A DNA stretch of 43,652 nucleotides. Source: a virus (lineage: Duplodnaviria > Heunggongvirae > Uroviricota > Caudoviricetes). Made by a program: the position numbers and the translations under genes. The DNA lies in the IMG/VR virus record IMGVR_UViG_2617270938_000005, positions 1-43,652 of that record. The stretch is one strand, 5' to 3'. The notes below the pieces were generated by a model, which saw nothing but the letters and a program-made list of their open reading frames with translations, was not told where the DNA came from and made no database searches. This document shows, one piece after another, positions 1-36,488 of this stretch (its first letter is position 1; each line of letters begins with the position of its first letter).

Positions 1-753
1 TTAAATGTTTTTGCCTTTCAGCTGATAATAATTTTTGTAATAGGTGTAAATAGTTGCCATTTCAACATCCGTTATTGCCCTAGATACAATCAGGCATGCC
101 CGCATGAAGATAGTGGCAGTCGTGGCTCCCTCGACAGAACCGCCCAGCAGAATTTTTGACGAAGGTACAGCATAAGGAGTCGTCGCTGCGGTGCGGGTTG
201 CTGACTGTGATGTGCGTGGCAGATCAAGCTTAGTCAGCATTGATCCGCTACCGTTGTCTCGCACAAACCGACTGACTGCCATTTCGCCATCAATTGCGGC
301 AGTAGACGGGATAAGGTCGGCCTGTTGTGCTGCACCTGCTGCAGTCAACCATTTAGCTCTCCACGCTGTAGCCGTAGTTTGTGTACCACGAGTACGCTGT
401 GGCGCGTTCATCTGCACCCGGCCCACAACAGCACCAATTACCCCTGGATGGACAGCTATTGTCACCATTGTCAGATCGCTGCCGTTATATGCTGCTATGT
501 CGATGTTTGTATCCAGGTGGTTAGCCTCAGTGAGGCTGACGCCGTAATCACCAAGAACAGGAGAGCCAACAACGGACATAGCAGCTCCAACCCGGTTTCT
601 GGTTAATGATGCAGTGTCTTTTACGTCAAAATCAGCCTGCAGGATAATCCCCGGTATTAAAGCCGGAAGTTGGGTGATGTCGTTTGGATAAGGGTAAGTG
701 TCAAGGTAACGCGTGGCTGTCACACCGTTATCAATATAAAAGCGGGTAGTCAT
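1..753 (-). CDS. hypothetical protein at distal end of tail cluster (possible fibre/spike accessory)
   Basis: Complete 250-aa ORF, stop at 1-3, directly downstream of tailspike gene on same strand; no recognisable motif. Confidence 0.35.
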   Translation of the reverse strand: MTTRFYIDNGVTATRYLDTYPYPNDITQLPALIPGIILQADFDVKDTASLTRNRVGAAMSVVGSPVLGDYGVSLTEANHLDTNIDIAAYNGSDLTMVTIAVHPGVIGAVVGRVQMNAPQRTRGTQTTATAWRAKWLTAAGAAQQADLIPSTAAIDGEMAVSRFVRDNGSGSMLTKLDLPRTSQSATRTAATTPYAVPSSKILLGGSVEGATTATIFMRACLIVSRAITDVEMATIYTYYKNYYQLKGKNI

Positions 754-766
754 GATTTACAGTCCT

Positions 767-2989
767 TTAAAGCTGGATGGAGAAAACGCAAAGGTCGTTA
801 TAGAGAGGCAGGCCGGATAGTGACGTCCCTGTTTGGGAATCTCTGATACACCCGCGCGAACCGGTTACAGGGCCGGGGTTTTGTCCGGCAATCCCCTGGC
901 TTGCATAAGATATCGCCGTCGCAGTGGTAGAATCGGTCTTGGTGATAACTATTTTTGCTGCTGATCCGCTGCCGCTAACGGCTACCGAAGCAATTGTGGC
1001 CCCGGTCAGGACAAAGCCGTAGTTGCCTGGATCGGTAACCCTCGAGGTGTCAATCACGAGATCACCAACACAACCCGCCACTGGTATAGTGATTGTGGTT
1101 CCTGACTGCACAACACCAGACTCTATCGGCACAAGCGCGGATTTTGTATTGTCATTCAGCCACCCACCAACCACCGCGCCAATAACTTCGCCTTCTGTCC
1201 GATACCCTGCGCTGGTCAGATGCTCACCGTCTGAATACGGGCGGGCATACTGTGCGCTGGCAAGATGGATTAATGCGTTATCACGGGCTTCCTGATATTG
1301 TGCGATACCGATGTTATTAGTTTTGGTCGAACCGGCAGTTCCGCCGTATGGAATGGTATTAGATAACTGGCCTACAAACATGTGAAGCGACTGGCTTTTT
1401 CCTGTTGCCGCGTTAATGACAGACTCATACTGAGCACGGAGAGTCTCCATTGCGGCGCGATAACTGGATATAGATGTGCCTGCTGCTGCATTCTGGTTGC
1501 CGTGGATAAGCACCATTACGGGAACATACTGCATACCCAACTTTTCAGCCATGGCTACAGCTGACTGAATCATTTTCGTTGCACCAGTAAAAGTCGCTGA
1601 ACCGGATGAAATGTCTGCGATTGCAGTACCGGATGAGCACGCATCGGAAACCAGAACCGTATGCCCGGTGAGATCATGAATTTTAAACGCCATACCGCTT
1701 GATGGCGACTCCTGTCCAGGCCGCGTCCCAGCATTCTCCCGGCATGGGATGACAGCCTCAAGGAGCGATTCATTCAGCGTGTCATACTTAAAATCGACTT
1801 TCGGGCCGGTCTCAAACGAGAGTATGCCGTAATCTGCCTGCGCTGTTGTCGTTACAGGGCTTTGTGCTTGCGTTGAACCGCCTGCAGCAAGAGACTGACC
1901 AGTTATAATCAGGTGAATAAGAAAGCGCAATGACTCTCGCGCCCGGTAATTCCCGTCATAAGTGGATCGATAAGTGATGTAGTTGCCGCTGACATTCGAC
2001 AAATAACGCAAAAATTCCGCATATGCCACTGGCGCAATATTTGAAACTCCGGAGTCGTTCGTGATCTGAGTTACATCGCTGCCATCTACCGCAATGATAT
2101 TTCCATCAACTGAAGCAACCATTGGGAATTCAGAGGCGTCATCATCAGGTGTGTCATCGCCCACCTGCTCCACGGTACCATCTGTGCGAACTCGCCGAAA
2201 AATTCTCCCCTGTCCGTCCATATGTATTTCAGAATAGTCACTGACACTGTCATCATCAGCAAACCACGTGGTCAGGCTGCCATGTGTCAGATTGCCAAGG
2301 GCAGAAATGTTAAATATTTCTTCACCAGTGGCGCGCATCTGGCAGACAAATCCTCCACCTGCAATTTGCACAAGCTCAATCCCTGAACCAATCATCAATG
2401 CCGGAAACTGGCTCGTGCCATCGGTATAACGGCGATAAACGGCATGCCCTACACTATCAAGAATGAGCTCAGCAATATCTGGGTATGCATCGGTAGTCTG
2501 AGCAGCACCGAAAGCCATAATTTTCGCCAGTTCAGTGGCAACCAAATCTCTCAGCGCGTCAACATATCCAGCAGAAATCATCCTGCGACCGGTTGGCTGC
2601 AACGTTCCGCCAACGTTCATGACCTCGATCGCGAGGGCGCTGTCATCCGGGCTGCGATAATAAGTAGTGCTCCCCTCGGGGATATTAGCAATATCTGCCT
2701 GTGCCGCGGCCAGTGTCATATACTGCCGGCTGAGAGGGATCAGGTTCTGCCTGGTTTCCTCAACTACAGCATCCCTTTCTTCTTGCGAGGTTTCAAAGTC
2801 TGCTTGCTGCTGCGTTAGCTGGTTGTCCGCCTTAACATTAACGCCATGCAAAGTATCTAACTGTTCGCCCGTGCGTGTGGTAATGGTTTCATCACTGCTA
2901 TTAACGAACTTGTCAATAGACTGCATATTATCCCATGCATCAGGCATGGATGCAGACGGCACAGGATTGCCGGTATCGTATTCACTCAT
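767..2989 (-). CDS. tailspike/tail fibre protein with putative esterase-like domain
   Basis: 740-aa ORF at end of tail module; central motif LIITGQSLAAGGS resembles the GQS(N) block of SGNH/sialate O-acetylesterase-type hydrolases. Confidence 0.5.
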   Translation of the reverse strand: MSEYDTGNPVPSASMPDAWDNMQSIDKFVNSSDETITTRTGEQLDTLHGVNVKADNQLTQQQADFETSQEERDAVVEETRQNLIPLSRQYMTLAAAQADIANIPEGSTTYYRSPDDSALAIEVMNVGGTLQPTGRRMISAGYVDALRDLVATELAKIMAFGAAQTTDAYPDIAELILDSVGHAVYRRYTDGTSQFPALMIGSGIELVQIAGGGFVCQMRATGEEIFNISALGNLTHGSLTTWFADDDSVSDYSEIHMDGQGRIFRRVRTDGTVEQVGDDTPDDDASEFPMVASVDGNIIAVDGSDVTQITNDSGVSNIAPVAYAEFLRYLSNVSGNYITYRSTYDGNYRARESLRFLIHLIITGQSLAAGGSTQAQSPVTTTAQADYGILSFETGPKVDFKYDTLNESLLEAVIPCRENAGTRPGQESPSSGMAFKIHDLTGHTVLVSDACSSGTAIADISSGSATFTGATKMIQSAVAMAEKLGMQYVPVMVLIHGNQNAAAGTSISSYRAAMETLRAQYESVINAATGKSQSLHMFVGQLSNTIPYGGTAGSTKTNNIGIAQYQEARDNALIHLASAQYARPYSDGEHLTSAGYRTEGEVIGAVVGGWLNDNTKSALVPIESGVVQSGTTITIPVAGCVGDLVIDTSRVTDPGNYGFVLTGATIASVAVSGSGSAAKIVITKTDSTTATAISYASQGIAGQNPGPVTGSRGCIRDSQTGTSLSGLPLYNDLCVFSIQL

Positions 2990-3047
2990 GGTCGCCCCAA
3001 TAAAAAACCGACCATAAGGTCAGTTTGCTTTCTGGTAATTTAGTGAC

Positions 3048-3245
3048 TTAATTCTTGCTATTTATTTTTGAATATTCTTTATCATCGTAAAATAGCCCGT
3101 CTGCCTTGTTATAAAACATCCCTGGCTGGCAAAATACACTTTCAGGATATTCGATAAGTTCAGCACCATCATATTCATAACCGCTTTCCGCAATTATGAT
3201 GTTTTTAACTATTCCACTTTCAATGACTGCGTAATTACCTGCCAT
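3048..3245 (-). CDS. small hypothetical protein (possible tail fibre assembly factor)
   Basis: 65-aa ORF between fibre and tailspike genes, AT-rich. Confidence 0.3.
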   Translation of the reverse strand: MAGNYAVIESGIVKNIIIAESGYEYDGAELIEYPESVFCQPGMFYNKADGLFYDDKEYSKINSKN

Positions 3246-4114
3246 TATGCGTACTCCTCAATGATGACATAGCCGTTAGCGCCCTTCCCTGATGCCCTGG
3301 CGATTGAGTCATATGATGCGCCAGCACCACCTCCACCAGGGAAAAATCCATCATCACCGGATGAACTAACGTGTGGAAGGCCACCATAACTACTGTGCGA
3401 TGCGCCACCTACACCACCCAGGCTTACACCAGATCCACCCTGTCCTCCCTGACCAGCCACTGAGAATATTGTCCCAACAGATGGAGCTCCCGGAATTCCG
3501 CCAGCAGAATTACCAGCAGAGTTTCCGCCCTTACCACCACCTGCTGAGATACCCAGCGCGGTAATGGTAGTGTCTCCCCCATCACCGCCATTTCCTGCAC
3601 TCCCTGCAGCAACTGCCGCACCACCAGCGCCAATAACGATATTCGCCCCATTAATGGTGCTTACGTCATATAATCCCTCAACATATGCACCACCCGCCCC
3701 ACTAGGCGCACCAGTCCCTGCGACGTCTGTCCCCTTACCCCCGCCGCCTGCACCCCATGCCTTGATTCTGACTTTTTTAGTGCCAGCAGCTTTTACCCAT
3801 GCTCCGCTAGCGGTAAAAACCTGAATGCGGAGCAGGCGTCCTTCTGCCTGATTATTAAGTGCGGACTTGAGAATATTTAGTAACGTGGCAATGTTTCCAT
3901 TATCCAGGACATCGCTTCCTGTGCTATCCGCCATGAATTGTGCAAGGACGGCAGCAATTGTAGAGGATTGCCGTAGTGCTTTATTTACTTGTGCTGACGA
4001 GGCTTTGCCGGAAAGAAAACCAGATGCCAGTACAGATAGCGCTTCATAATCAGCCTGTGATAATACGTTTGCCCCGCTACCAGTAGCGAAGGGTTTAAAA
4101 TCGTTAGTCGCCAT
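3245..4114 (-). CDS. tail fibre protein, glycine-rich repeats
   Basis: N-terminus MATNDFKPFATGSGANVLSQADYEAL is fibre-like; long G-rich repeat tract; start taken at second Met abutting upstream gene. Confidence 0.55.
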   Translation of the reverse strand: MATNDFKPFATGSGANVLSQADYEALSVLASGFLSGKASSAQVNKALRQSSTIAAVLAQFMADSTGSDVLDNGNIATLLNILKSALNNQAEGRLLRIQVFTASGAWVKAAGTKKVRIKAWGAGGGGKGTDVAGTGAPSGAGGAYVEGLYDVSTINGANIVIGAGGAAVAAGSAGNGGDGGDTTITALGISAGGGKGGNSAGNSAGGIPGAPSVGTIFSVAGQGGQGGSGVSLGGVGGASHSSYGGLPHVSSSGDDGFFPGGGGAGASYDSIARASGKGANGYVIIEEYA

Positions 4115-4887
4115 TAAAATCTCTCTCCCCATGACCCGCGGTCGAAGCCAGCGATATAGTCATTTTCGATATCGAAGCCAAAAAACTGATAACCATCACT
4201 GACGGTCTCTATTTCACGGACACGAACCCCTGCGGCTTTAACCGTCATATAACCGTTCCGAATCGCCCACCATAGCTCGCTGTTAACATGGTCAATCGGG
4301 TTAATGTCATAGCGCGAAGGCACGTAACCTGCCGGTAATGCGATAAAGGGGCCTTTATTGACGGCGCTATCCAGAATTAACCGGTCTATTTCACTTAGGG
4401 CTACCGATGGGTCACCGAGTATCCAGATGGAAATCGACATATCCTGGTTGTCGACAATAGCCATGCGGATCCCGGACCCGGCAAGGGCGGCATCAAGAAT
4501 TGAAGGCAGCGAATCGTTCTGACCATCCCAGTTGTTTATTGCCACTTTCACCTTCAGCATTAGCCGATATATTTCATCGCTTAGATCGATAAAACCGTCG
4601 TTTGGGTCATATGGTCCCTGCCAGACCCCCTGATCCCAGCCAACCCGTTCGGTGTCCCACGAAAAATAAATCCCGGTTACCGGTGTTGCCACGCGACGGG
4701 AACGACCAACCCATTCGCCTACAACGTCAAGCTGCACGCCAATGGCGGTATCAATATCAAAATCGGGTATTAGCCGTGACATTGCATCGGAAACATCGCT
4801 CAGTGGCCTGGTGGACAGGTCAACGTGTGCAAAGAACTTTGGTTTACCGGCGTGGTAGTTTGTTATGCGGTCAGTGTATCTGCTCAT
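4114..4887 (-). CDS. tail/baseplate protein (gpI-like)
   Basis: 257-aa ORF coupled downstream of baseplate J-like gene. Confidence 0.45.
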   Translation of the reverse strand: MSRYTDRITNYHAGKPKFFAHVDLSTRPLSDVSDAMSRLIPDFDIDTAIGVQLDVVGEWVGRSRRVATPVTGIYFSWDTERVGWDQGVWQGPYDPNDGFIDLSDEIYRLMLKVKVAINNWDGQNDSLPSILDAALAGSGIRMAIVDNQDMSISIWILGDPSVALSEIDRLILDSAVNKGPFIALPAGYVPSRYDINPIDHVNSELWWAIRNGYMTVKAAGVRVREIETVSDGYQFFGFDIENDYIAGFDRGSWGERF

Positions 4888-6080
4888 GAGACCACCAGAT
4901 TAATATTGCTGACGGCGCAGGATGCTGACTGGTCAAAGGCAATATCCACGTTTGCCGCGGCTACGCCACCGGCAGACGTCCCGATCAGCAACTCGGTAAT
5001 GTCGTAATACCTGGCATTACCACCACTGACAACACCAAGGTTAGCCGGTGAGTAAACGCGACTGAGAAGAACGCTGGCGCCGATTGCCAGTGAGTTAATG
5101 TAGGCAGATACAGCCGCCTTTATCTCTTCGCCAACCTGGGATGTGTAGCCCGTAAGAGGTTCGATAGTGATTTTGACGTAAATGGGTACATCGACCGGCC
5201 TTGAAAAACCTACCGGGTGAGGGTTTCCGTACTTATCAGGCACAACAATCACCGTACTACCGTAGGGTGTTACGCCCTGCCCTTTCACACCACGAATGCT
5301 GTTTGCAATGACCGTCGCATCACCACCTTCTACAATGGCGGCGATTGAGTGCGGAGGCAGGCCATTTGCATCAGTGGTATCTGTATCGTTCTCATACAGC
5401 TTGTGTCGCGTTACGCCGCTGATATTTGCTATCGCGCCATCTACCGCCTCAAACGGCGTCAGAGACGGTAAAGCAACGCTCTGTGATTGCCGGACACGCA
5501 ATTCAGCATTTGTTTCGGCAGCAACGCCTACCGTAGCCGCTTGCGGGTTAGTTACTGATACCCAACCACGTGTCGGGGTGTTTATCTTATTGACTGCCCC
5601 GGCAGGGGCCGCCACAGCGCCAGCAACAGAACACGTCGCTGTAGCAATAACCGTCCCATCAATACCAATTGTCACCTGAGCAGGAAGATTCCAGATGATG
5701 CCGTTGGCATCTTTCACAGAGCCGTTTGTGATTAACGTTCCGGCCTCACCTTCGATCAGCTCATCGACCGTAGAATTTGTCGCAGCCCGGCGAGCGATGC
5801 CGTTAATTTTGACGTTACTGGTTAATGCATCGTCCAGCGCCGTCGACGGAGAAAATGACCGGTAAACAGAAATGGCCGTGTTGTTGGCATCATGAATGGC
5901 CAGAGCCACCAGAGCGACCATCTGGCCGTCTTTGCTGTCCGGGTCGAGATAGGCATCACTGCCATAAATCTGCTGAAAATAGCTAATCAGGGTGCTGAGT
6001 ATCGTCTGATAATCAGGCGCACTTATCCCCTCAGCGGTTACCGTTGCCGATAAGCCGAGTGTGTCGAGGTCCAGAGCCAT
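4884..6080 (-). CDS. baseplate J-like protein
   Basis: 398-aa ORF in baseplate position; size and position as in Mu/P2-type baseplates. Confidence 0.55.
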   Translation of the reverse strand: MALDLDTLGLSATVTAEGISAPDYQTILSTLISYFQQIYGSDAYLDPDSKDGQMVALVALAIHDANNTAISVYRSFSPSTALDDALTSNVKINGIARRAATNSTVDELIEGEAGTLITNGSVKDANGIIWNLPAQVTIGIDGTVIATATCSVAGAVAAPAGAVNKINTPTRGWVSVTNPQAATVGVAAETNAELRVRQSQSVALPSLTPFEAVDGAIANISGVTRHKLYENDTDTTDANGLPPHSIAAIVEGGDATVIANSIRGVKGQGVTPYGSTVIVVPDKYGNPHPVGFSRPVDVPIYVKITIEPLTGYTSQVGEEIKAAVSAYINSLAIGASVLLSRVYSPANLGVVSGGNARYYDITELLIGTSAGGVAAANVDIAFDQSASCAVSNINLVVS

Positions 6081-7148: not shown

Positions 7149-8063
7149 TCAGTAGTTATGTACTGAAGGAGGTAATTCTTTATTCTTAAGTCTCATCCAT
7201 GCGGAAAGATTCGCTGGTCCGTCTGGCTCATTGATATCAACATCTCGTGTGTGATTGATTAAAACGTCTCTCGCCATTCCGATAACATACGAGAATTCAT
7301 GACCGTAGTCGTAGCATCTGCCGGAATAGTTCGATTGAATTTGTTTTAATGCCGGATACAGTTCGCGGAATAATGCCTGTGAACGGTTGGCATAATCCCA
7401 TAACCATACAAGGCTGTTTGCTTCTTTTGCAGAAAACTCGTTTGCTTTCTTCTCTTGTTTGCCAATGAACTCACCTTCAAGTGGAACTCGAGCTGCAAGT
7501 GACAGTGCTTCTGTAAACTGCTCCTCACTGATTTCTTTGTATGAACATCCAAAATGGGATTTCAGTGACGACCACATGGTGATCATCGCCTTCGCCTGTT
7601 TTTCTTTTGGCAGAGACTGACCGCGACTCATGACGAGTTGTTTAATAGCTTCCTGCTGTTCAGTGGTGATTTTACCAGGCAACGCCTTTTTAGCTTTCGG
7701 TGTATTTCCGTAAGACCCCGTTTTACGAATGGATGGCAAAACTTCAGCTGTTACCCATTTGCGGAATTTGTGCGGGACTGAACCTTTATTGACGGCATCA
7801 CGGCAGCGCAGAACCAATGTATACATACCTGATTCGCTCACAATGCTTAAATTCTGCTCACCACCAAGGGTGTAACTTAAAGTTACTCCCTTCTCATCGT
7901 CATCAAGTGCAGTAAGCGCCTTGCGTGAGTTAGTCAGGGCTAAAGCATCACAAACATCTTTTGCTACAAACCACGGCTCACCGCACTTGTTGATGACGCG
8001 GATTTCACTGTCGCCGAATTTGAAGATGGTGAAATCGTTTTGTGCCTTTGCTATACTTTTCAT
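7149..8063 (-). CDS. ant: antirepressor (Bro-N domain)
   Basis: N-terminal [16 protein letters not shown]...[11 protein letters not shown] matches Bro-N/antirepressor N-domain (cf. P22 Ant). Confidence 0.75.
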
Positions 8064-8751: not shown

Positions 8752-9087
8752 TCATTTAACCTTTCGGCAATCGTACGTCCAAAATTCCCGAGGCTCGTCC
8801 ATATTTTTGCGGATAACTTCAACGTTGAGGATCGCTTTTTTGTTTCGTTTGATGTAGTCCATACCTAACCAACGTCCAGTATTAGGATCAGGTAACATCC
8901 ATTGCATCATGACGTTATCGAAATCGTCTTTTTGTTTCAAAAAGGTCATTTTTTGTGTTTCTGGCTTTTGACCATTGATGTGCATGAGGCCATCATTGCC
9001 AGCATCAAAGCGGAATGGTCCGCACTGCGTTGCCGCCGAAACGGTTAACGGCAGGGCCAAGAATAAACAAAAAAATACTTTTTTCAC
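8752..9087 (-). CDS. small secreted protein (signal peptide), moron-like
   Basis: MKKVFFCLFLALPLTVSA-A signal peptide with AXA cleavage site; ATGA start/stop overlap with upstream tail gene. Confidence 0.5.
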   Translation of the reverse strand: MKKVFFCLFLALPLTVSAATQCGPFRFDAGNDGLMHINGQKPETQKMTFLKQKDDFDNVMMQWMLPDPNTGRWLGMDYIKRNKKAILNVEVIRKNMDEPREFWTYDCRKVK

Positions 9088-10121
9088 TCTACATCTCCGA
9101 CTTTGTCCAAAGTGCCTTTTGCCAATAGTTCTTTGCCACCTTTAGCCAGGCAAAGCAGGTCCATATACCACGCCTGCCCGCGAGTATCGCCAGTATAGTC
9201 AATGCTGCCGACAATGTAATCACCATCGGTATTGATTGCCGCCAGCTGCGACCCGGGAAGCCCATCGACATAGATGTTACCGTCTGTGGTACTTTCGCCT
9301 AAGATACCTGGTGACTGGCCAACCTGGTCATTACCGAGAGCCTGACGATATACAGAGGCCTGATCCAGCCTGATAAGCCCACCAAGCTTAATATTCGGGT
9401 TTATCAGACAGCGCACATTTACCCCGGCGCCCATCGTCTGCTGAGGCATACCGATCAGGCCCGTATTGGCGTTCAGTACAATCGCTTCCTGTATGTACTT
9501 ATCATCAGGAACAATATGCACCTGGTTGTTTTCGTACCACCAATTAGCCTTACATTGCCCTGCAAGGCTGTACATCAGGCGTCCAGTGTTCTGATAAATA
9601 GTGCGGCCGCGGGGGAATACAGTTGGACCAAAATCCGGCCTGCTTCCCTCTGTAATGCCATAAGGGCTAAGGGACTGCATACCCAAATCAAACAGGTCAG
9701 CATGCTTCCAGCCTGCCGATACTGTCGTTTTCACGCTGGCGTTGAGATGCCCCTCCCAGCCATCAATACACTGGATGAGCACCCAACTATCGGTGACGTT
9801 ATCTTTTCCGGTAACGGTAAAGCGAATATCACCGTTAAAGATGATCCCCACATTTTTATCAGGATAGTTACCACTGCTGTCTGCTGTGCCGTTATACCCG
9901 GCAATAGCCCTTACACGAGTAAACTCTTTACCCATGATCCGGTTTTGTGTCTCCGGCGACAGATTGTAGATTTTGAAGTTACCCACGAATCCGTTAAAGA
10001 TAGTCGCGGGCATCTTCTGGATATTAAACGTCACCTTAAAATCCGACAGCGAAACACCATCACCCTTGTCGTCAATAAGCTGCAGCTCAAAGTGCCGCAT
10101 CCAGTTCTGAGACATAATCAC
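9084..10121 (-). CDS. tail/baseplate hub protein (putative)
   Basis: 345-aa ORF in baseplate position downstream of tape measure region. Confidence 0.4.
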   Translation of the reverse strand: MIMSQNWMRHFELQLIDDKGDGVSLSDFKVTFNIQKMPATIFNGFVGNFKIYNLSPETQNRIMGKEFTRVRAIAGYNGTADSSGNYPDKNVGIIFNGDIRFTVTGKDNVTDSWVLIQCIDGWEGHLNASVKTTVSAGWKHADLFDLGMQSLSPYGITEGSRPDFGPTVFPRGRTIYQNTGRLMYSLAGQCKANWWYENNQVHIVPDDKYIQEAIVLNANTGLIGMPQQTMGAGVNVRCLINPNIKLGGLIRLDQASVYRQALGNDQVGQSPGILGESTTDGNIYVDGLPGSQLAAINTDGDYIVGSIDYTGDTRGQAWYMDLLCLAKGGKELLAKGTLDKVGDVE

Positions 10122-10420
10122 TCCGTTACTGCGTAGAGATGGCTTTTAATGCCGAGGTCGGTTTGGGTTGGATTATCATTTGCTGGGTCGTCGCAATTGA
10201 CATAGAGCGAAAAGCCAAGCCCGAGATAGCGATACTGAGCCAGCAGGTTGGCGCCGGTGATAAGCGGGATCCCCTTTATCAGGTCGGCCCCGGTACTGTC
10301 CATAATATCCAGACACCAGAAAGCAGCACGCCAGGTGACAGCCATTTGCAGGCTTTGACCTGCAACAGATATGGAGAATCGCTGGTTTTCTGGTGATAGA
10401 GGGATTTCTGAAACAGCCAT
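10118..10420 (-). CDS. hypothetical tail protein
   Basis: 100-aa ORF translationally coupled within tail module. Confidence 0.35.
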   Translation of the reverse strand: MAVSEIPLSPENQRFSISVAGQSLQMAVTWRAAFWCLDIMDSTGADLIKGIPLITGANLLAQYRYLGLGFSLYVNCDDPANDNPTQTDLGIKSHLYAVTE

Positions 10421-11020
10421 TTAACCTCCCGAGATGAAACCGACAAACCGGCTTATTAGCGACTCATCTTTCGGAGTCGGTGTCTTTACTCCTGAATTTT
10501 GCACCGCTGACGTGTTTACCCCCTCTTTCATGTTTTCCTTCGCTGCCACGCTGACTGTCTGCGTTTGGCTGGTGATTATTTCCCTCAGTGTAACTGTCGC
10601 CATCAGTACGTTTTCGCTGGTACGTTCGGTCGTCACATCCAGAGAGCGGATCACCATATTGGTATAAAGACGCTTCCCGGTGGTTACATCAAGCAACTGC
10701 CTTTCCTGCTGCATTTTGAGCAGCTCAGCATAGACTTCCTTAGGCCCCATGTTGTTAAGGGGCGTAGACAGCCCGATGCCTGCTGTATCATAAAAATCCA
10801 GCAAGGAACCACCACCAGCAAAGCCTATCTCCATAACGACTTCTGACGGGCGCCGATATGCATGGTCTGCAATGAACCCTGTTCCTGCGCTTGTAGGCCT
10901 TTCAACTGGATGCTCTGTCACCTCCAGAGCATCGCTATGACGCTCTGAAACCACCACATCGGGTATCATCAGACCAATACGGCGGCTCCGCTGCTGGAAA
11001 AGGGTTGAAAGAATATCCAT
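10421..11020 (-). CDS. tail protein downstream of tape measure (DNA-circularisation-like position)
   Basis: 199-aa ORF abutting tape measure stop. Confidence 0.35.
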   Translation of the reverse strand: MDILSTLFQQRSRRIGLMIPDVVVSERHSDALEVTEHPVERPTSAGTGFIADHAYRRPSEVVMEIGFAGGGSLLDFYDTAGIGLSTPLNNMGPKEVYAELLKMQQERQLLDVTTGKRLYTNMVIRSLDVTTERTSENVLMATVTLREIITSQTQTVSVAAKENMKEGVNTSAVQNSGVKTPTPKDESLISRFVGFISGG

Positions 11021-13020
11021 CAGCTCGGCCCCCTGGTTAGTTGCTGGGTAGCGCGTGCATTAACGTTGCCCTGGCTTTCAGAGACGATTTTCCCCGCCTC
11101 TCTCGGATCGCTGACACCAGAAATGTTGATAACGGTATTCTGGTTCAATGTCGCGCCAGCCCCCGGCATATTGCTCAACACCTTCGGGATATATTGCCTG
11201 GTTTCCTGCGGCATCAGCGCCATGCCGTATTTCTGCACGTTACCGATCCCCCAGTTATACGAGGCCAGAGCTTTACCCAGATCTCCGCCGTTCTTCTGCA
11301 GGAGCATCGATAGATATCGCGCCGCCGCTTCCGCTGACTTGATCGGGTCGAAGACATCATTCCCGCGTAGCCCCATATCCCGAGCGGTGCCAGGCATAAA
11401 CTGGAACATTCCCTGTGCGCCGGCACCGGATACAGCGAACTGATTTCCCCCTGATTCAGTGATAGCGACACTTCGCAGAAGACCAGAAGGAAGGTTATAC
11501 ATAGCCTCCAGCTTACCCATCATCGGGGCCATCCATCCAAGCAACTGAGCGCCAGCTTTTGAAGGTGACGGTCGTTTCACTGATTGTCCGTACTGCGTGG
11601 CATCACCATTCCACCAGTCAACAGCCTTATCCCATAACCCCTGCCCGACAGAGGCGGCACCCTGAATAATCGGGCTATCACTCCACGCTGCGGCTGCGCC
11701 TTTAAGCGAATCCCATGCGCCTGAGAAATCGCCACTAATAACCTTTCGCAGAGCGTCCACCAGCGAACCAAGGATTTTGATTGAACTGCGGACGCTTTCG
11801 ATAATCTGGTCAAACAGCCATTTGCCATTAAATTTCGACGTATCGATATTAATGAATTCAAGGAATCGCTTACCCAGATCGACGATGGCAGAGCCAAGGT
11901 CTTTAACCTTCAGATAGATGCCACTAAAGTCCTTACTCAGGCTGGCAAAAGCCTTTTGGGCATATTTGATACCCGGCTCCCATTTCCCCCAGTCTATGAG
12001 CGACTGGCCGCCTTCTTTCCACGTACGGTAATCGTCGTAGAGACCTATCAGCGCGGCTCCCAGCATAAAGACACGGCCAATGGGCGACATCGCAAAGGCG
12101 GTATTCAGAAGGCGCCATGCAACCATCAATGCGCCAAATACCTCAATAACTTGTCTGGTTTCGGTACCGAGTGATTTCCACCAGTTGATAATGTCCCCTG
12201 TGAGCTGTATCAACCGATAAACCACCCGGCCAATGATTTCACCAAACCACAGGACACCTTTGACACCAGCAGTGATAGCCCCTTCAATTTTCGGGAAATT
12301 CTCCATGATCTGACGGCGCAGGCGGTCCAGCGAGCCCGTCAGACCATCGGCCAGACTGGAACCGATTTTGTCCCGCGCCATACCGGCCATTTCGCCGAGG
12401 GAACGGAGTGAGGTCATAAACCTGTTAGACGCAGCAGCAGCCTGTTCAGGATTGAACCCGATGGCCTTTTTCATCGCGTTGTACTGGCCCATGTACTCAC
12501 CAATACCACGGCGCATTGCCATCAGGGTATTTTCATCAATACCCAGCATCTGTGCGTACTGGTTTGCACGGTAGTACGGCATGCTGCTAAGACGCTGGCC
12601 GACGCCGGTAAAGATCGTCGCCATATCCCGCATGTTGCCGCTGGCATCACGCGTTTGAACCCCCAGCCGGTTCAGGAAACCCTCAGCGCCGGGATTGTTA
12701 CGCATGAACCTGGCAAGATTTTCGAGAGAGCCGCGGGCCCCGTCGACACTGCCGCCAACCTGACTAACCGCATACCCAATCTGCTTAATGCCCTCCACCG
12801 TCGCGCCTGTGCGCTGAGAGGCCCAGTACAGGTCGTCGAGACCGCTGGCAATTTTCGCGGTGAATGCAACGACGGAAAGTGCCGCCGCCTCAACTTTGAC
12901 GCCCAGTTCAATCGCTTTAAGCGTTGTCCCGGCAACGACGGCATCGAATTTTCTGGCGCCAGCCTCATCAACTTTGAACCCAAGCGAGATCAGAAAGTCC
13001 TTGAGCGTTTCAGCGTTCAT
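11020..13020 (-). CDS. tail tape measure protein with C-terminal lytic transglycosylase (SLT) domain
   Basis: 666-aa ORF after frameshifted chaperone; C-terminal AITESGGN...GMFQFMPGTARDMG...YNWG is SLT-like. Confidence 0.8.
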   Translation of the reverse strand: MNAETLKDFLISLGFKVDEAGARKFDAVVAGTTLKAIELGVKVEAAALSVVAFTAKIASGLDDLYWASQRTGATVEGIKQIGYAVSQVGGSVDGARGSLENLARFMRNNPGAEGFLNRLGVQTRDASGNMRDMATIFTGVGQRLSSMPYYRANQYAQMLGIDENTLMAMRRGIGEYMGQYNAMKKAIGFNPEQAAAASNRFMTSLRSLGEMAGMARDKIGSSLADGLTGSLDRLRRQIMENFPKIEGAITAGVKGVLWFGEIIGRVVYRLIQLTGDIINWWKSLGTETRQVIEVFGALMVAWRLLNTAFAMSPIGRVFMLGAALIGLYDDYRTWKEGGQSLIDWGKWEPGIKYAQKAFASLSKDFSGIYLKVKDLGSAIVDLGKRFLEFINIDTSKFNGKWLFDQIIESVRSSIKILGSLVDALRKVISGDFSGAWDSLKGAAAAWSDSPIIQGAASVGQGLWDKAVDWWNGDATQYGQSVKRPSPSKAGAQLLGWMAPMMGKLEAMYNLPSGLLRSVAITESGGNQFAVSGAGAQGMFQFMPGTARDMGLRGNDVFDPIKSAEAAARYLSMLLQKNGGDLGKALASYNWGIGNVQKYGMALMPQETRQYIPKVLSNMPGAGATLNQNTVINISGVSDPREAGKIVSESQGNVNARATQQLTRGPS

Positions 13021-26499: not shown

Positions 26500-26575
26500 T
26501 GGTGCTGTTTAACGGACTTGAACCGCTACCCATTCGCTTACAAGGCGACCGCTCTACCATTGGAGCTAAAACAGC
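26500..26575 (-). tRNA. tRNA, anticodon UGU (Thr)
   Basis: Manual cloverleaf: acceptor GCTGTTT/AAACAGC, D-stem GCTC/GAGC with GG, anticodon loop CTTGTAA, T-loop TTCAAGT, encoded ACCA 3' end. Confidence 0.65.
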
Positions 26576-26580
26576 ATGTT

Positions 26581-26655
26581 TGGCGGGACAGCGTGGACTC
26601 GAACCACGATAAGAAGGTTAACAGCCTTCCGTAATCACCTTTATACGACTGACCC
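26581..26655 (-). tRNA. tRNA-like, anticodon GUU (Asn), with stem mismatches
   Basis: Anticodon arm GAAGG-CTGTTAA-CCTTC, T-arm CGTGG-TTCGAGT-CCACG, CCA end; one T-T mismatch each in acceptor and D stems. Confidence 0.5.
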
Positions 26656-35718: not shown

Positions 35719-35864
35719 CCAAATATCGAAGCGGCAAACAAAAATCGCTGGGGTTTGACGATTGGTGTAACTGGATAGATAGATACGGAACTTGGTGGGA
35801 TAAATAACAGGTAACTTAAGCGTATTTACTTTCGCAGCAAACCACTTATTTGAGAGGAATTAAT

Positions 35865-36488
35865 ATGTCATCAATCCGCTTAACTACGAGAATGAAAGAG
35901 AAAATCGCTCGTAACGCTTTAATTAAGTCTGGGGTTTTCACTGAACTTGAAGAAGTAACAAAGTTAAAGAACCAGCTTGCACTTGACGCCAGAGTTATTG
36001 CGTTTGGCGGTAAAAAGAAAACTGAGGAAGTGGATCAGTTATCATCCAAGTTGGTAGCTATAAGTGAAGAACTTGAAAAGATGGGATGTTCATTTTACTC
36101 ATACGATGTTAGTTCTACTTCAATTTATCTGACTGTATCTGGCAGAAGGGTTGGATGGCATTCATATGGGAAAGACGGCAACGGCGAAGATATATTGCTC
36201 CCTACTCCGACAAAAGATAAATGCATGTTTGACGCAGAGCACGAAATAACAAAAAGGTTTGATGAAATCTGCGCATTGCAACAAAAACTTGAAGTCAGGA
36301 AAAAGGATATCGAATCAAATGTATGGGCTGCTTTGAACTCAGTCACAACAGTTAAGCGACTTATTGAAGTTTGGCCTGAAAGCAAAGAATTGCTACCAGA
36401 AGAAGCAGATAAAGCAAGTACAGCACTTCCTGCTTTACGGGTAGAAGATTTGAATAAGATGATTGGACTTCCTTCCGAGGCCGCATAG
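35865..36488 (+). CDS. hypothetical protein
   Basis: 207-aa ORF with GAGAGG RBS. Confidence 0.4.
   Translation: MSSIRLTTRMKEKIARNALIKSGVFTELEEVTKLKNQLALDARVIAFGGKKKTEEVDQLSSKLVAISEELEKMGCSFYSYDVSSTSIYLTVSGRRVGWHSYGKDGNGEDILLPTPTKDKCMFDAEHEITKRFDEICALQQKLEVRKKDIESNVWAALNSVTTVKRLIEVWPESKELLPEEADKASTALPALRVEDLNKMIGLPSEAA

Follow-up and report, generated by a model that had tools for sequence, protein, structure and literature searches.

Tail fibres with esterase domains are already known and are common in Klebsiella prophages, and we describe here what appears to be a further member of this established kind, the 740-amino-acid (aa) product of an open reading frame (ORF) with an ATG start at positions 767..2989, minus strand, of a tailed-phage sequence of 43,652 nucleotides (nt) (IMG/VR record IMGVR_UViG_2617270938_000005; the whole stretch is called the window below). 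Among the enzymatic domains in the receptor-binding proteins (RBPs) of Klebsiella prophages, SGNH is the one found most often (PMC13123978), and two such fibres, 164_08-KL2 and 174_38-KL55, hydrolyse p-nitrophenyl acetate (pNP-acetate), with no capsule depolymerised among 118 K-types (Otwinowska et al., PLoS Biol 2026, PMC13123978). In that article, the heads are classed by the ECOD label 'SGNH hydrolase', and neither the SASA subfamily nor a downstream partner gene is mentioned. The SGNH domain of gp63.1 from the E. coli phage G7C, as cited there (ref 58) and in a 2026 preprint (10.64898/2026.05.12.724579), strips an O-acetyl group off the host O-antigen, and adsorption depends on it; similarly, the tailspike of the Acinetobacter phage Aristophanes is cited as deacetylating the K26 capsule (PMC8471582, via PMC11058221). 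The same preprint places SGNH RBPs of Mydovirus and of temperate phages under the heading 'capsule surface remodeller' and gives their substrates as unknown. In the Acinetobacter siphophages fLi-Aba02/03, the fibre gp21 carries a Pfam SASA match, and its neighbor gp22 is concanavalin A (ConA)-like (PMC11058221).

The solved protein nearest to the window fibre, both by profile and by fold, is the tailspike of the cyanopodophage Pan3 (PDB 9VYH, released 2025-11), for whose function we found no description in the literature searched. The two share the order GQS ... HGE ... D-x-x-H (HGN in the window fibre), followed by a beta-sandwich with an RG-x-x-RD motif, and when the full-length model replaces the C-terminal one, the alignment grows from about 450 to about 590 columns, reaching some 140 columns further upstream into the beta stalk. 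They differ in that they are only 16-17% identical, with several insertions in the esterase domain, and in that Pan3 is a podovirus of a cyanobacterial host. With the SASA clan at large (PF03629, 2APJ, 1ZMB, 8F9O, 7KMM, 3PT5), the fibre shares the fold, the GQS block, the (H/Q)G(E/N) block III, and the DxxH block V, and with SIAE and CE20 enzymes it further shares the two-domain layout of an esterase followed by a beta-sandwich. It is distinguished from the clan by a Leu in place of the Asn after the Ser, by the invariant E427, Q541, and Y581, and by its fusion to a phage fibre. Like the Klebsiella prophage SGNH fibres, it is a probable RBP of a temperate Klebsiella phage with a C-terminal SGNH head and no beta-helix depolymerase; its C-terminal 380 aa are homologous to those of fLi-Aba02/03 gp21 (25% identity), and with G7C gp63.1 it shares the functional model of a virion-borne esterase RBP.

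On the basis of the analyses presented below, we consider it likely that this fibre binds the receptor and removes O-acetyl groups from capsule or O-antigen. The modelled C-terminal half almost certainly adopts an esterase fold, and the fibre head is likely an active acetylesterase. The gene and its modules, with the codons of the predicted catalytic residues, are as follows.

767..2989, minus strand: whole gene for the 740-aa receptor-binding tail fibre/tailspike with a predicted C-terminal esterase (ORF; PHROG 4201, E = 1e-89; full-length AlphaFold2 model with a predicted local distance difference test [pLDDT] score of 87)
767..769, minus strand: stop codon of the fibre gene
2729..2989, minus strand: phage-specific N-terminal anchor, aa 1-87, predicted to be helical, with aa 47-82 forming one long helix (sequence comparison; model)
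2582..2728, minus strand: small alpha/beta junction domain, aa 88-136 (PHROGs 31000, 33908, and 38670 match aa 87-163)
2477..2581, minus strand: helical neck (helix aa 140-159) and linker, aa 137-171 (DSSP of the full-length model)
1937..2476, minus strand: all-beta, beta-propeller-like domain of about 18 short strands, aa 172-351 (model pLDDT 78-95)
1142..1936, minus strand: predicted SASA-type SGNH esterase domain, aa 352-616 (conservation; Pfam SASA in 19/29 relatives; 9vyh and 2apj profile matches; Foldseek)
1892..1894, minus strand: codon of Ser366, predicted nucleophile (100% in 88 domains; model topology)
1496..1504, minus strand: codons of His496-Gly497-Asn498, block III, with the predicted oxyanion-hole Asn (conservation)
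1220..1231, minus strand: codons of Asp587-Gly-Glu-His590, predicted acid/base pair, block V DxxH (conservation; aligned with the DNLH of 2apj)
770..1141, minus strand: C-terminal beta-sandwich fused to the esterase, aa 617-740 (conservation; model pLDDT >90)

An earlier note on this DNA, made from the sequence alone, had singled out a GQS-type motif in this 740-aa protein, LIITGQSLAAGGS, as reminiscent of SGNH/sialate O-acetylesterase-family hydrolases. The motif is indeed present, at aa 360-372 (window 1874..1912, minus strand), with the GQS itself at aa 364-366. This tripeptide occurs once in the fibre against a chance expectation of 0.34 from the protein's own composition; taken bare, it is not beyond chance, and the case for an esterase therefore has to come from homology and fold. 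Searched exhaustively with HMMER, aa 346-740 define a family of 1,669 representatives (at 50% identity) at E<=1e-3, 818 of them at E<=1e-10; many are of fibre length, and some others, 330-420 aa long, stand alone. Among 88 diverse, full-coverage domains of this family (26-47% identity), G364, Q365, S366, G497, Y581, and H590 are conserved without exception, and E427 (99%), Q541 (98%), and D587 (92%) nearly so; E427, Q541, and Y581 are specific to the family within the esterase domain. Position 498 is Glu in 83% of these domains, resembling the SASA 'QGE' motif, and Asn in 12%, the window fibre being one with Asn. Essentially all of the 120 close homologues (69-94% identity) retain GQS, HGN, and SDGEH, and every one of them has HGN. 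In the C-terminal sandwich, D647 and G658 are invariant, and R712 and R716-D717-S718 are strongly conserved.

Through relatives, the family can be tied to SASA at the level of sequence. Pfam SASA (PF03629) is matched at E<0.01 by 19 of the 29 relatives scanned (best E = 1.3e-10), whereas the fibre has no PF03629 score. The match of one relative, P0191, reaches 41.7 bits against a curated cut-off of 24.8 and spans profile positions 2-224 of 226, and it therefore includes the N-terminal GQS(N) block; the homologue of the Webervirus TSK1 falls just below the same threshold at 23.9 bits. The SASA link is thus a transitive one, and since relatives match the model and the fibre does not, the fibre is, as judged by sequence, a divergent relative of the SASA clan rather than a formal member of PF03629. 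Searching the PDB with the family profile recovered residues 316-741 of the 745-aa 9vyh tail spike (E = 1.6e-28) and the SASA-family esterase At4g34215 (2APJ; E = 8.8e-5), with the D-G-x-H-L-T of the family aligned on D-N-L-H-L-T.

Structure prediction points in the same direction. The AlphaFold2 model of aa 346-740, built from a 29-sequence alignment, has a pLDDT of 90.5 and a predicted template modelling (TM) score of 0.91, and its comparison with the PDB by Foldseek yielded 38 matches at E<=1e-3, essentially all of them SGNH/GDSL/SASA esterases with a probability of 1.0. The matches included the following.

9vyh, tailspike of cyanopodophage Pan3: E = 9e-20, TM score 0.75
8f9o (dog) and guinea-pig sialic acid esterase SIAE: E = 1.6e-11
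7kmm, CE20 acetylesterase XAC1771: E = 7e-11
1zmb, from C. acetobutylicum: E = 5e-8
Deacetylase FI8: E = 5.1e-7
2apj, At4g34215: E = 6.1e-7
9ega, a second CE20 enzyme: E = 2.0e-6
Esterase-type fibres of phages SFP21A, Moo19, and B2 (Shigella phages among them): E = 1.9e-5 to 1.6e-4
3pt5, NanS: E = 2.4e-5

GDSL lipases, aryl esterases, and acyltransferases rank below the SASA-type enzymes (E = 1e-4 to 1e-2). The C-terminal half of the fibre is thus predicted to adopt the three-layer alpha/beta/alpha flavodoxin-like SGNH fold, and its closest solved folds are SASA-type enzymes rather than other SGNH subfamilies. In SGNH enzymes, blocks I and III follow beta-1 and beta-3, respectively, and block V precedes the last helix. 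In the model, S366 comes after the strand aa 356-364 and opens a helix at aa 366-369, H496-G497-N498 follows the strand aa 487-495, and D587 and H590 fall in a loop that leads into the last long helix, aa 593-613. The predicted catalytic residues thus sit where blocks I, III, and V are canonically found. The fibre also aligns with the two-domain esterases SIAE and XAC1771 across more than 420 columns at TM scores of 0.57-0.58, because of which we regard the beta-sandwich at aa 617-740 as part of the same two-domain layout. The esterase likeness proposed in the earlier note, together with the fold and the catalytic Ser/Asp/His that it named as the things to look for, is accordingly supported by the family conservation, by the SASA matches of relatives, and by the predicted fold.

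Several observations weigh against an active SASA-type esterase. A Pfam scan of the full fibre and of aa 346-740 gave no match even at E<=10, and a phmmer search of the PDB with the whole fibre likewise returned none (the N-terminal half gave a chance match only). Block I reads GQSL in the fibre versus the GQSN of SASA, and block III reads HGN versus the HGE of most relatives; the candidate Gly residues of block II, G454 (75%) and G463 (93%), were picked by inspection only. The motifs of the window fibre, searched for a tie to a K-locus, had no sequence match in the supplements of PMC13123978, and kinship with the tested fibres of that study is at most putative. Finally, G7C gp63.1 (4QNL), which comes from a lytic N4-like podovirus, lies outside the top 50 structural matches of the fibre; it therefore represents a different SGNH subfamily with a different architecture, and the analogy with it is one of function, not of close kinship.

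Some of these features would be expected if the esterase fold had been kept as a lectin-like binding module devoid of hydrolysis. Such a module would be in keeping with the replacement of the block I Asn by Leu, which is the residue after the nucleophile Ser in 93% of the family, with the variation of block III between E and N, and with the fibre missing the Pfam SASA model entirely. It is improbable nonetheless, as the retention of Ser, Asp, and His throughout the 88 divergent domains and essentially all of the 120 close homologues is hard to explain without catalysis, and other SGNH fibres from Klebsiella prophages are active (PMC13123978).

A second alternative, which we judge similarly unlikely, accepts an active SGNH hydrolase and changes its target to a different acyl or ester decoration, to O-acetylated peptidoglycan, or to a lipid ester. 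SGNH enzymes are chemically diverse, as reflected in the aryl esterases, lipases, and acyltransferases lower in the Foldseek list, and the survey of such Klebsiella RBPs leaves their substrates undetermined (10.64898/2026.05.12.724579). Against this, the best matches of the fibre are all carbohydrate O-acetylesterases (SIAE, CE20, CE6-like, NanS, and At4g34215), and the tip of a tail fibre is a position from which surface glycans are met first.

The N-terminal half bears on how the predicted acetylesterase would be carried. The gene is the second-to-last of the late operon, in which genes for baseplate J (4884..6080), a DUF2612-like protein (4114..4887), a glycine-rich fibre (3245..4132), and a 65-aa protein are followed by the esterase fibre and a 250-aa ORF, and the fibre matches PHROG 4201 'tail fiber protein' across aa 50-739, so that its earlier designation as a distal tail protein was right. 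An attachment module thus appears to lie N terminal to the predicted enzyme and to be encoded within the tail/baseplate cluster. The long helix at aa 47-82 is a probable trimeric coiled coil. The neck and linker (aa 137-171) are of low confidence in the model (pLDDT 54-81), and in the all-beta domain that follows (aa 172-351), no enzymatic fold was detected. Only the full-length model drew weak Foldseek matches (E = 1e-4 to 1e-3) to propellers, namely TolB, BamB, tricorn, and designed ones, which suggest with low confidence that this stalk domain is propeller-like, and it appears from the full-length alignment to be shared with the Pan3 tailspike. Searches of BFVD with the fibre model recovered tail fibres of Klebsiella phages and phage esterases.

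Comparison with related prophages reveals the modular construction of the fibre. Sister Klebsiella prophage fibres are 88-94% identical over aa 1-140/153 and then diverge, some of them bearing other 'SGNH/GDSL hydrolase' heads, and at the DNA level the identity to the nearest Klebsiella prophages ends at window position ~2586. Conversely, E. coli 20KM2222 (NZ_CP151050.1) contains window positions 1-2770 at 99.1% nt identity, and its 727-aa fibre is ~100% identical from about aa 80 on and 25-60% identical before. The lytic Mydovirus VIK251, on whose host K-type the literature offers a passing mention only, has a 57%-identical copy of aa 88-740 placed behind a Tail_spike_N anchor. In E. coli XJW9B277 (NZ_CP068041.1; 3501..7136 of the extracted locus), the fibre gene and its downstream neighbor (the cassette below) are present at 90% nt identity beside a TipJ host-specificity gene, which indicates that the esterase head is used on a lambda-like siphovirus tail too; an IS26 is inserted just upstream, and an ISKox3 lies nearby. 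The cassette was found in 3 of 5,426 complete E. coli genomes. Two recombination junctions, at window ~2586 (aa ~134) and ~2750 (aa ~80), flank the aa 88-136 domain, which is common to phages with the same anchor and to phages with the same esterase and looks, from these comparisons, like a graft point for swapping heads and anchors. On this comparative evidence, the first ~80-135 aa form a baseplate anchor that can be swapped, and, in view of the visible exchange points and the different anchors in 20KM2222, VIK251, and XJW9B277, the esterase head is a specificity cassette that moves between phages and serves on several tail types.

This architecture speaks to a third alternative, a nonstructural prophage esterase resembling NanS-p that would leave the cell at lysis and win sialic acid or another sugar for the host. 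NanS-p is a free, nonfibre protein in which a DUF1737 at the N terminus accompanies a SASA domain, and its genes lie near tail genes in Stx prophages, a setting which, like the structural match to NanS, would favor this alternative. The window fibre, on the other hand, has no DUF1737 or other Pfam domain and begins with a tail-fibre anchor common to other RBPs, followed by a coiled-coil neck and a stalk; its best structural match, 9vyh, is a tailspike resolved in the virion, and the same head has been grafted on different anchors in both myo- and sipho-type tails, all of which makes a free esterase very improbable. That the fibre is instead a glycan depolymerase, with a glycosidase or lyase in its N-terminal half or C-terminal sandwich, is hardly credible, for while aa 1-351, half of the fibre, has no family assignment, the full-length model contains no beta-helix or pectin-lyase-like segment of the kind that defines beta-helix capsule depolymerase tailspikes, no beta-helix proteins are found among the structural matches, and the middle domain, ~180 aa made up of short strands, has no more than weak matches to propellers.

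Returning to a receptor-binding fibre with an acetylesterase head, we propose the following mechanism, in which we infer the trimeric state, the enzymatic activity, the substrate, and the role in adsorption. The N-terminal anchor (~80-135 aa) would plug the fibre into the baseplate, and the helical neck together with the beta-propeller-like domain would form the stalk. The fibre would presumably assemble as a trimer, with which the long helices at aa 47-82 and 140-159, compatible with coiled coils, are consistent. The distal head, a SASA-subfamily SGNH hydrolase fused to a beta-sandwich, would use Ser366 as the nucleophile, His590 as the base, and Asp587 as the acid, with an oxyanion hole formed by Asn498 and the backbone amides of Ser366 and probably Gly454 or Gly463. 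It would bind an O-acetylated surface polysaccharide (capsule or O-antigen) and hydrolyse the acetyl ester, leaving the glycan chain uncut, and either the cycle of binding and release or the resulting unmasking would bring the virion to a secondary receptor. Which hosts are infected would then be set by which acetylated glycan is recognised. The suggestion in the earlier note of a receptor-modifying action on acetylated polysaccharide that bears on host range agrees, by analogy, with the published SGNH fibres of Klebsiella prophages (PMC13123978).

If correct, this reading has several consequences. The matching of Klebsiella phages to hosts is usually predicted from beta-helix depolymerases, and esterase fibres escape both this approach and standard Pfam annotation; recognition of the SASA-type acetylesterase assigns a predicted function to a family of more than 1,600 representatives at 50% identity. 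Host range is predicted to depend on O-acetylation of the surface glycan, which K-locus typing misses. S366 and H590 are named as predicted catalytic residues for mutation, and the cassette structure provides graft points (~aa 80 and ~aa 134) for host-range engineering while also suggesting that recombinant work may need the downstream gene to be co-expressed. The copies of the fibre listed in databases are unnamed, called 'hypothetical protein', or misnamed as a 'flagellar biosynthesis' protein. The wrong name, in full 'flagellar biosynthesis, cell-distal portion of basal-body rod', is attached to several copies and has spread into the records of ST13-OXA48phi12.5 and KPP5665-2.

The downstream gene is the last of the operon.

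1..753, minus strand: 250-aa ORF, 13 nt after the fibre stop codon (AGGA 9 nt before its ATG)

It is probably co-transcribed with the fibre gene. Its product has 58 detectable relatives and no match in Pfam or the PDB; UniRef gives the name 'Concanavalin A-like lectin/glucanase superfamily' to a homologue with 43% identity, and the protein is probably a ConA-like jelly-roll protein, a label that, with Pfam and the PDB silent, rests on the UniRef name and on the annotation of the Acinetobacter analogues. The partner travels with the esterase: VIK251_00050 is 68% identical to it and adjoins the 57%-identical fibre, and the two genes occur together in E. coli 20KM2222 (99% nt identity) and XJW9B277 (90%). 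Distant esterase fibres (25% identity) of TSK1, HD01, ST13-OXA48phi12.5, and fLi-Aba02 are also followed within a few bases by an ORF of 246-259 aa. In fLi-Aba02/03 (gp21 and gp22) and in HD01 (HD01_00020 and HD01_00021), the gene order is that of the window, with a gene of ~250 aa annotated or classified as ConA-like immediately behind the esterase fibre; the fLi-Aba02 partner is annotated as ConA-like, likewise by SUPERFAMILY classification. The partners in HD01, fLi-Aba02, and ST13 are homologues of one another (E = 6e-31 and 1e-8). Between the partners of the window and VIK251, however, and those of either the HD01/fLi-Aba02/ST13 group or TSK1, no significant sequence similarity was found; fLi-Aba02/03 further differ from the window phage in host and tail type.

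These neighborhoods raise the tentative possibility that the unit of host-range exchange is a two-gene cassette, consisting of the esterase head from about aa 80 and the 250-aa ConA-like protein, whose products would cooperate as a widespread, hitherto undescribed two-component receptor-recognition module. The partner might then dock on the fibre as a lectin subunit and set its glycan specificity, serve as a dedicated folding factor, or, as a jelly-roll glycanase or lyase, act after acetyl loss. Were this so, that module would be marked by the order of an esterase followed by a ~250-aa protein, which is seen in myo- and siphophages of Klebsiella, in prophages of E. coli, and in siphophages of Acinetobacter. 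In 20KM2222, an Acyl_transf_3 acyltransferase (PF01757, E = 4e-15) and an 87-aa ORF lie divergently and directly upstream of the esterase fibre (9052..10406 of the locus extracted from that genome, plus strand). The acyltransferase and esterase may be partners that add and remove acetyl groups on one surface glycan, a pairing that, under the two-gene cassette, would hint at a conflict of acetylation and de-acetylation over one receptor. In the window, no acyltransferase was found among the ORFs scanned, the scan having covered part of them. A terminator-like hairpin of 9 pairs with a T-run (3005..3026, minus strand) separates the 65-aa ORF from the start codon of the fibre gene, immediately upstream of the cassette; in the promoter/terminator scan of window positions 1..4200, the overall count of sites was not above chance.

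The gene content of the window is that of a lambdoid temperate phage of Klebsiella/E. coli with a contractile-tail baseplate. Genes for a CI-like repressor, O/P replication proteins, NinG, Q, Erf, and SSB are accompanied by morphogenesis genes for the terminase, portal, tape measure, and baseplate J. Over positions 2.6-20 kb, identity is ~93% to the Klebsiella prophages and phages P18-100, ST11-VIM1phi8.3, and Wanchaivirus PDP110P2, whereas to Mulock it is 88%. Two further genes lie between the DUF2612-like gene and the esterase fibre.

3245..4132, minus strand: second fibre, 295 aa, glycine-rich (Pfam Gly_rich_2; PHROGs 863 and 11303)
3048..3245, minus strand: 65-aa ORF after the glycine-rich fibre (PHROG 18617)

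Because of the second, glycine-rich fibre, the phage probably has two receptor-binding proteins. Inside the tail/baseplate cluster, we also noted a gene for an Ant-type anti-repressor (7149..8063, minus strand; PHROG 245, E = 1e-110), and the tape measure protein (11020..13020, minus strand) has a C-terminal lytic transglycosylase-like segment at aa ~476-660 (PHROGs 2013, 669, and 13449). Between the Q antiterminator and the lysis genes, there is a tandem of tRNA-Thr(TGT) and tRNA-Asn(GTT) (26500..26655, minus strand), and the early region encodes a 212-aa protein (35850..36488, plus strand) with a full-length match to Pfam Nmad5 (nucleotide modification associated domain 5; E = 1e-70).

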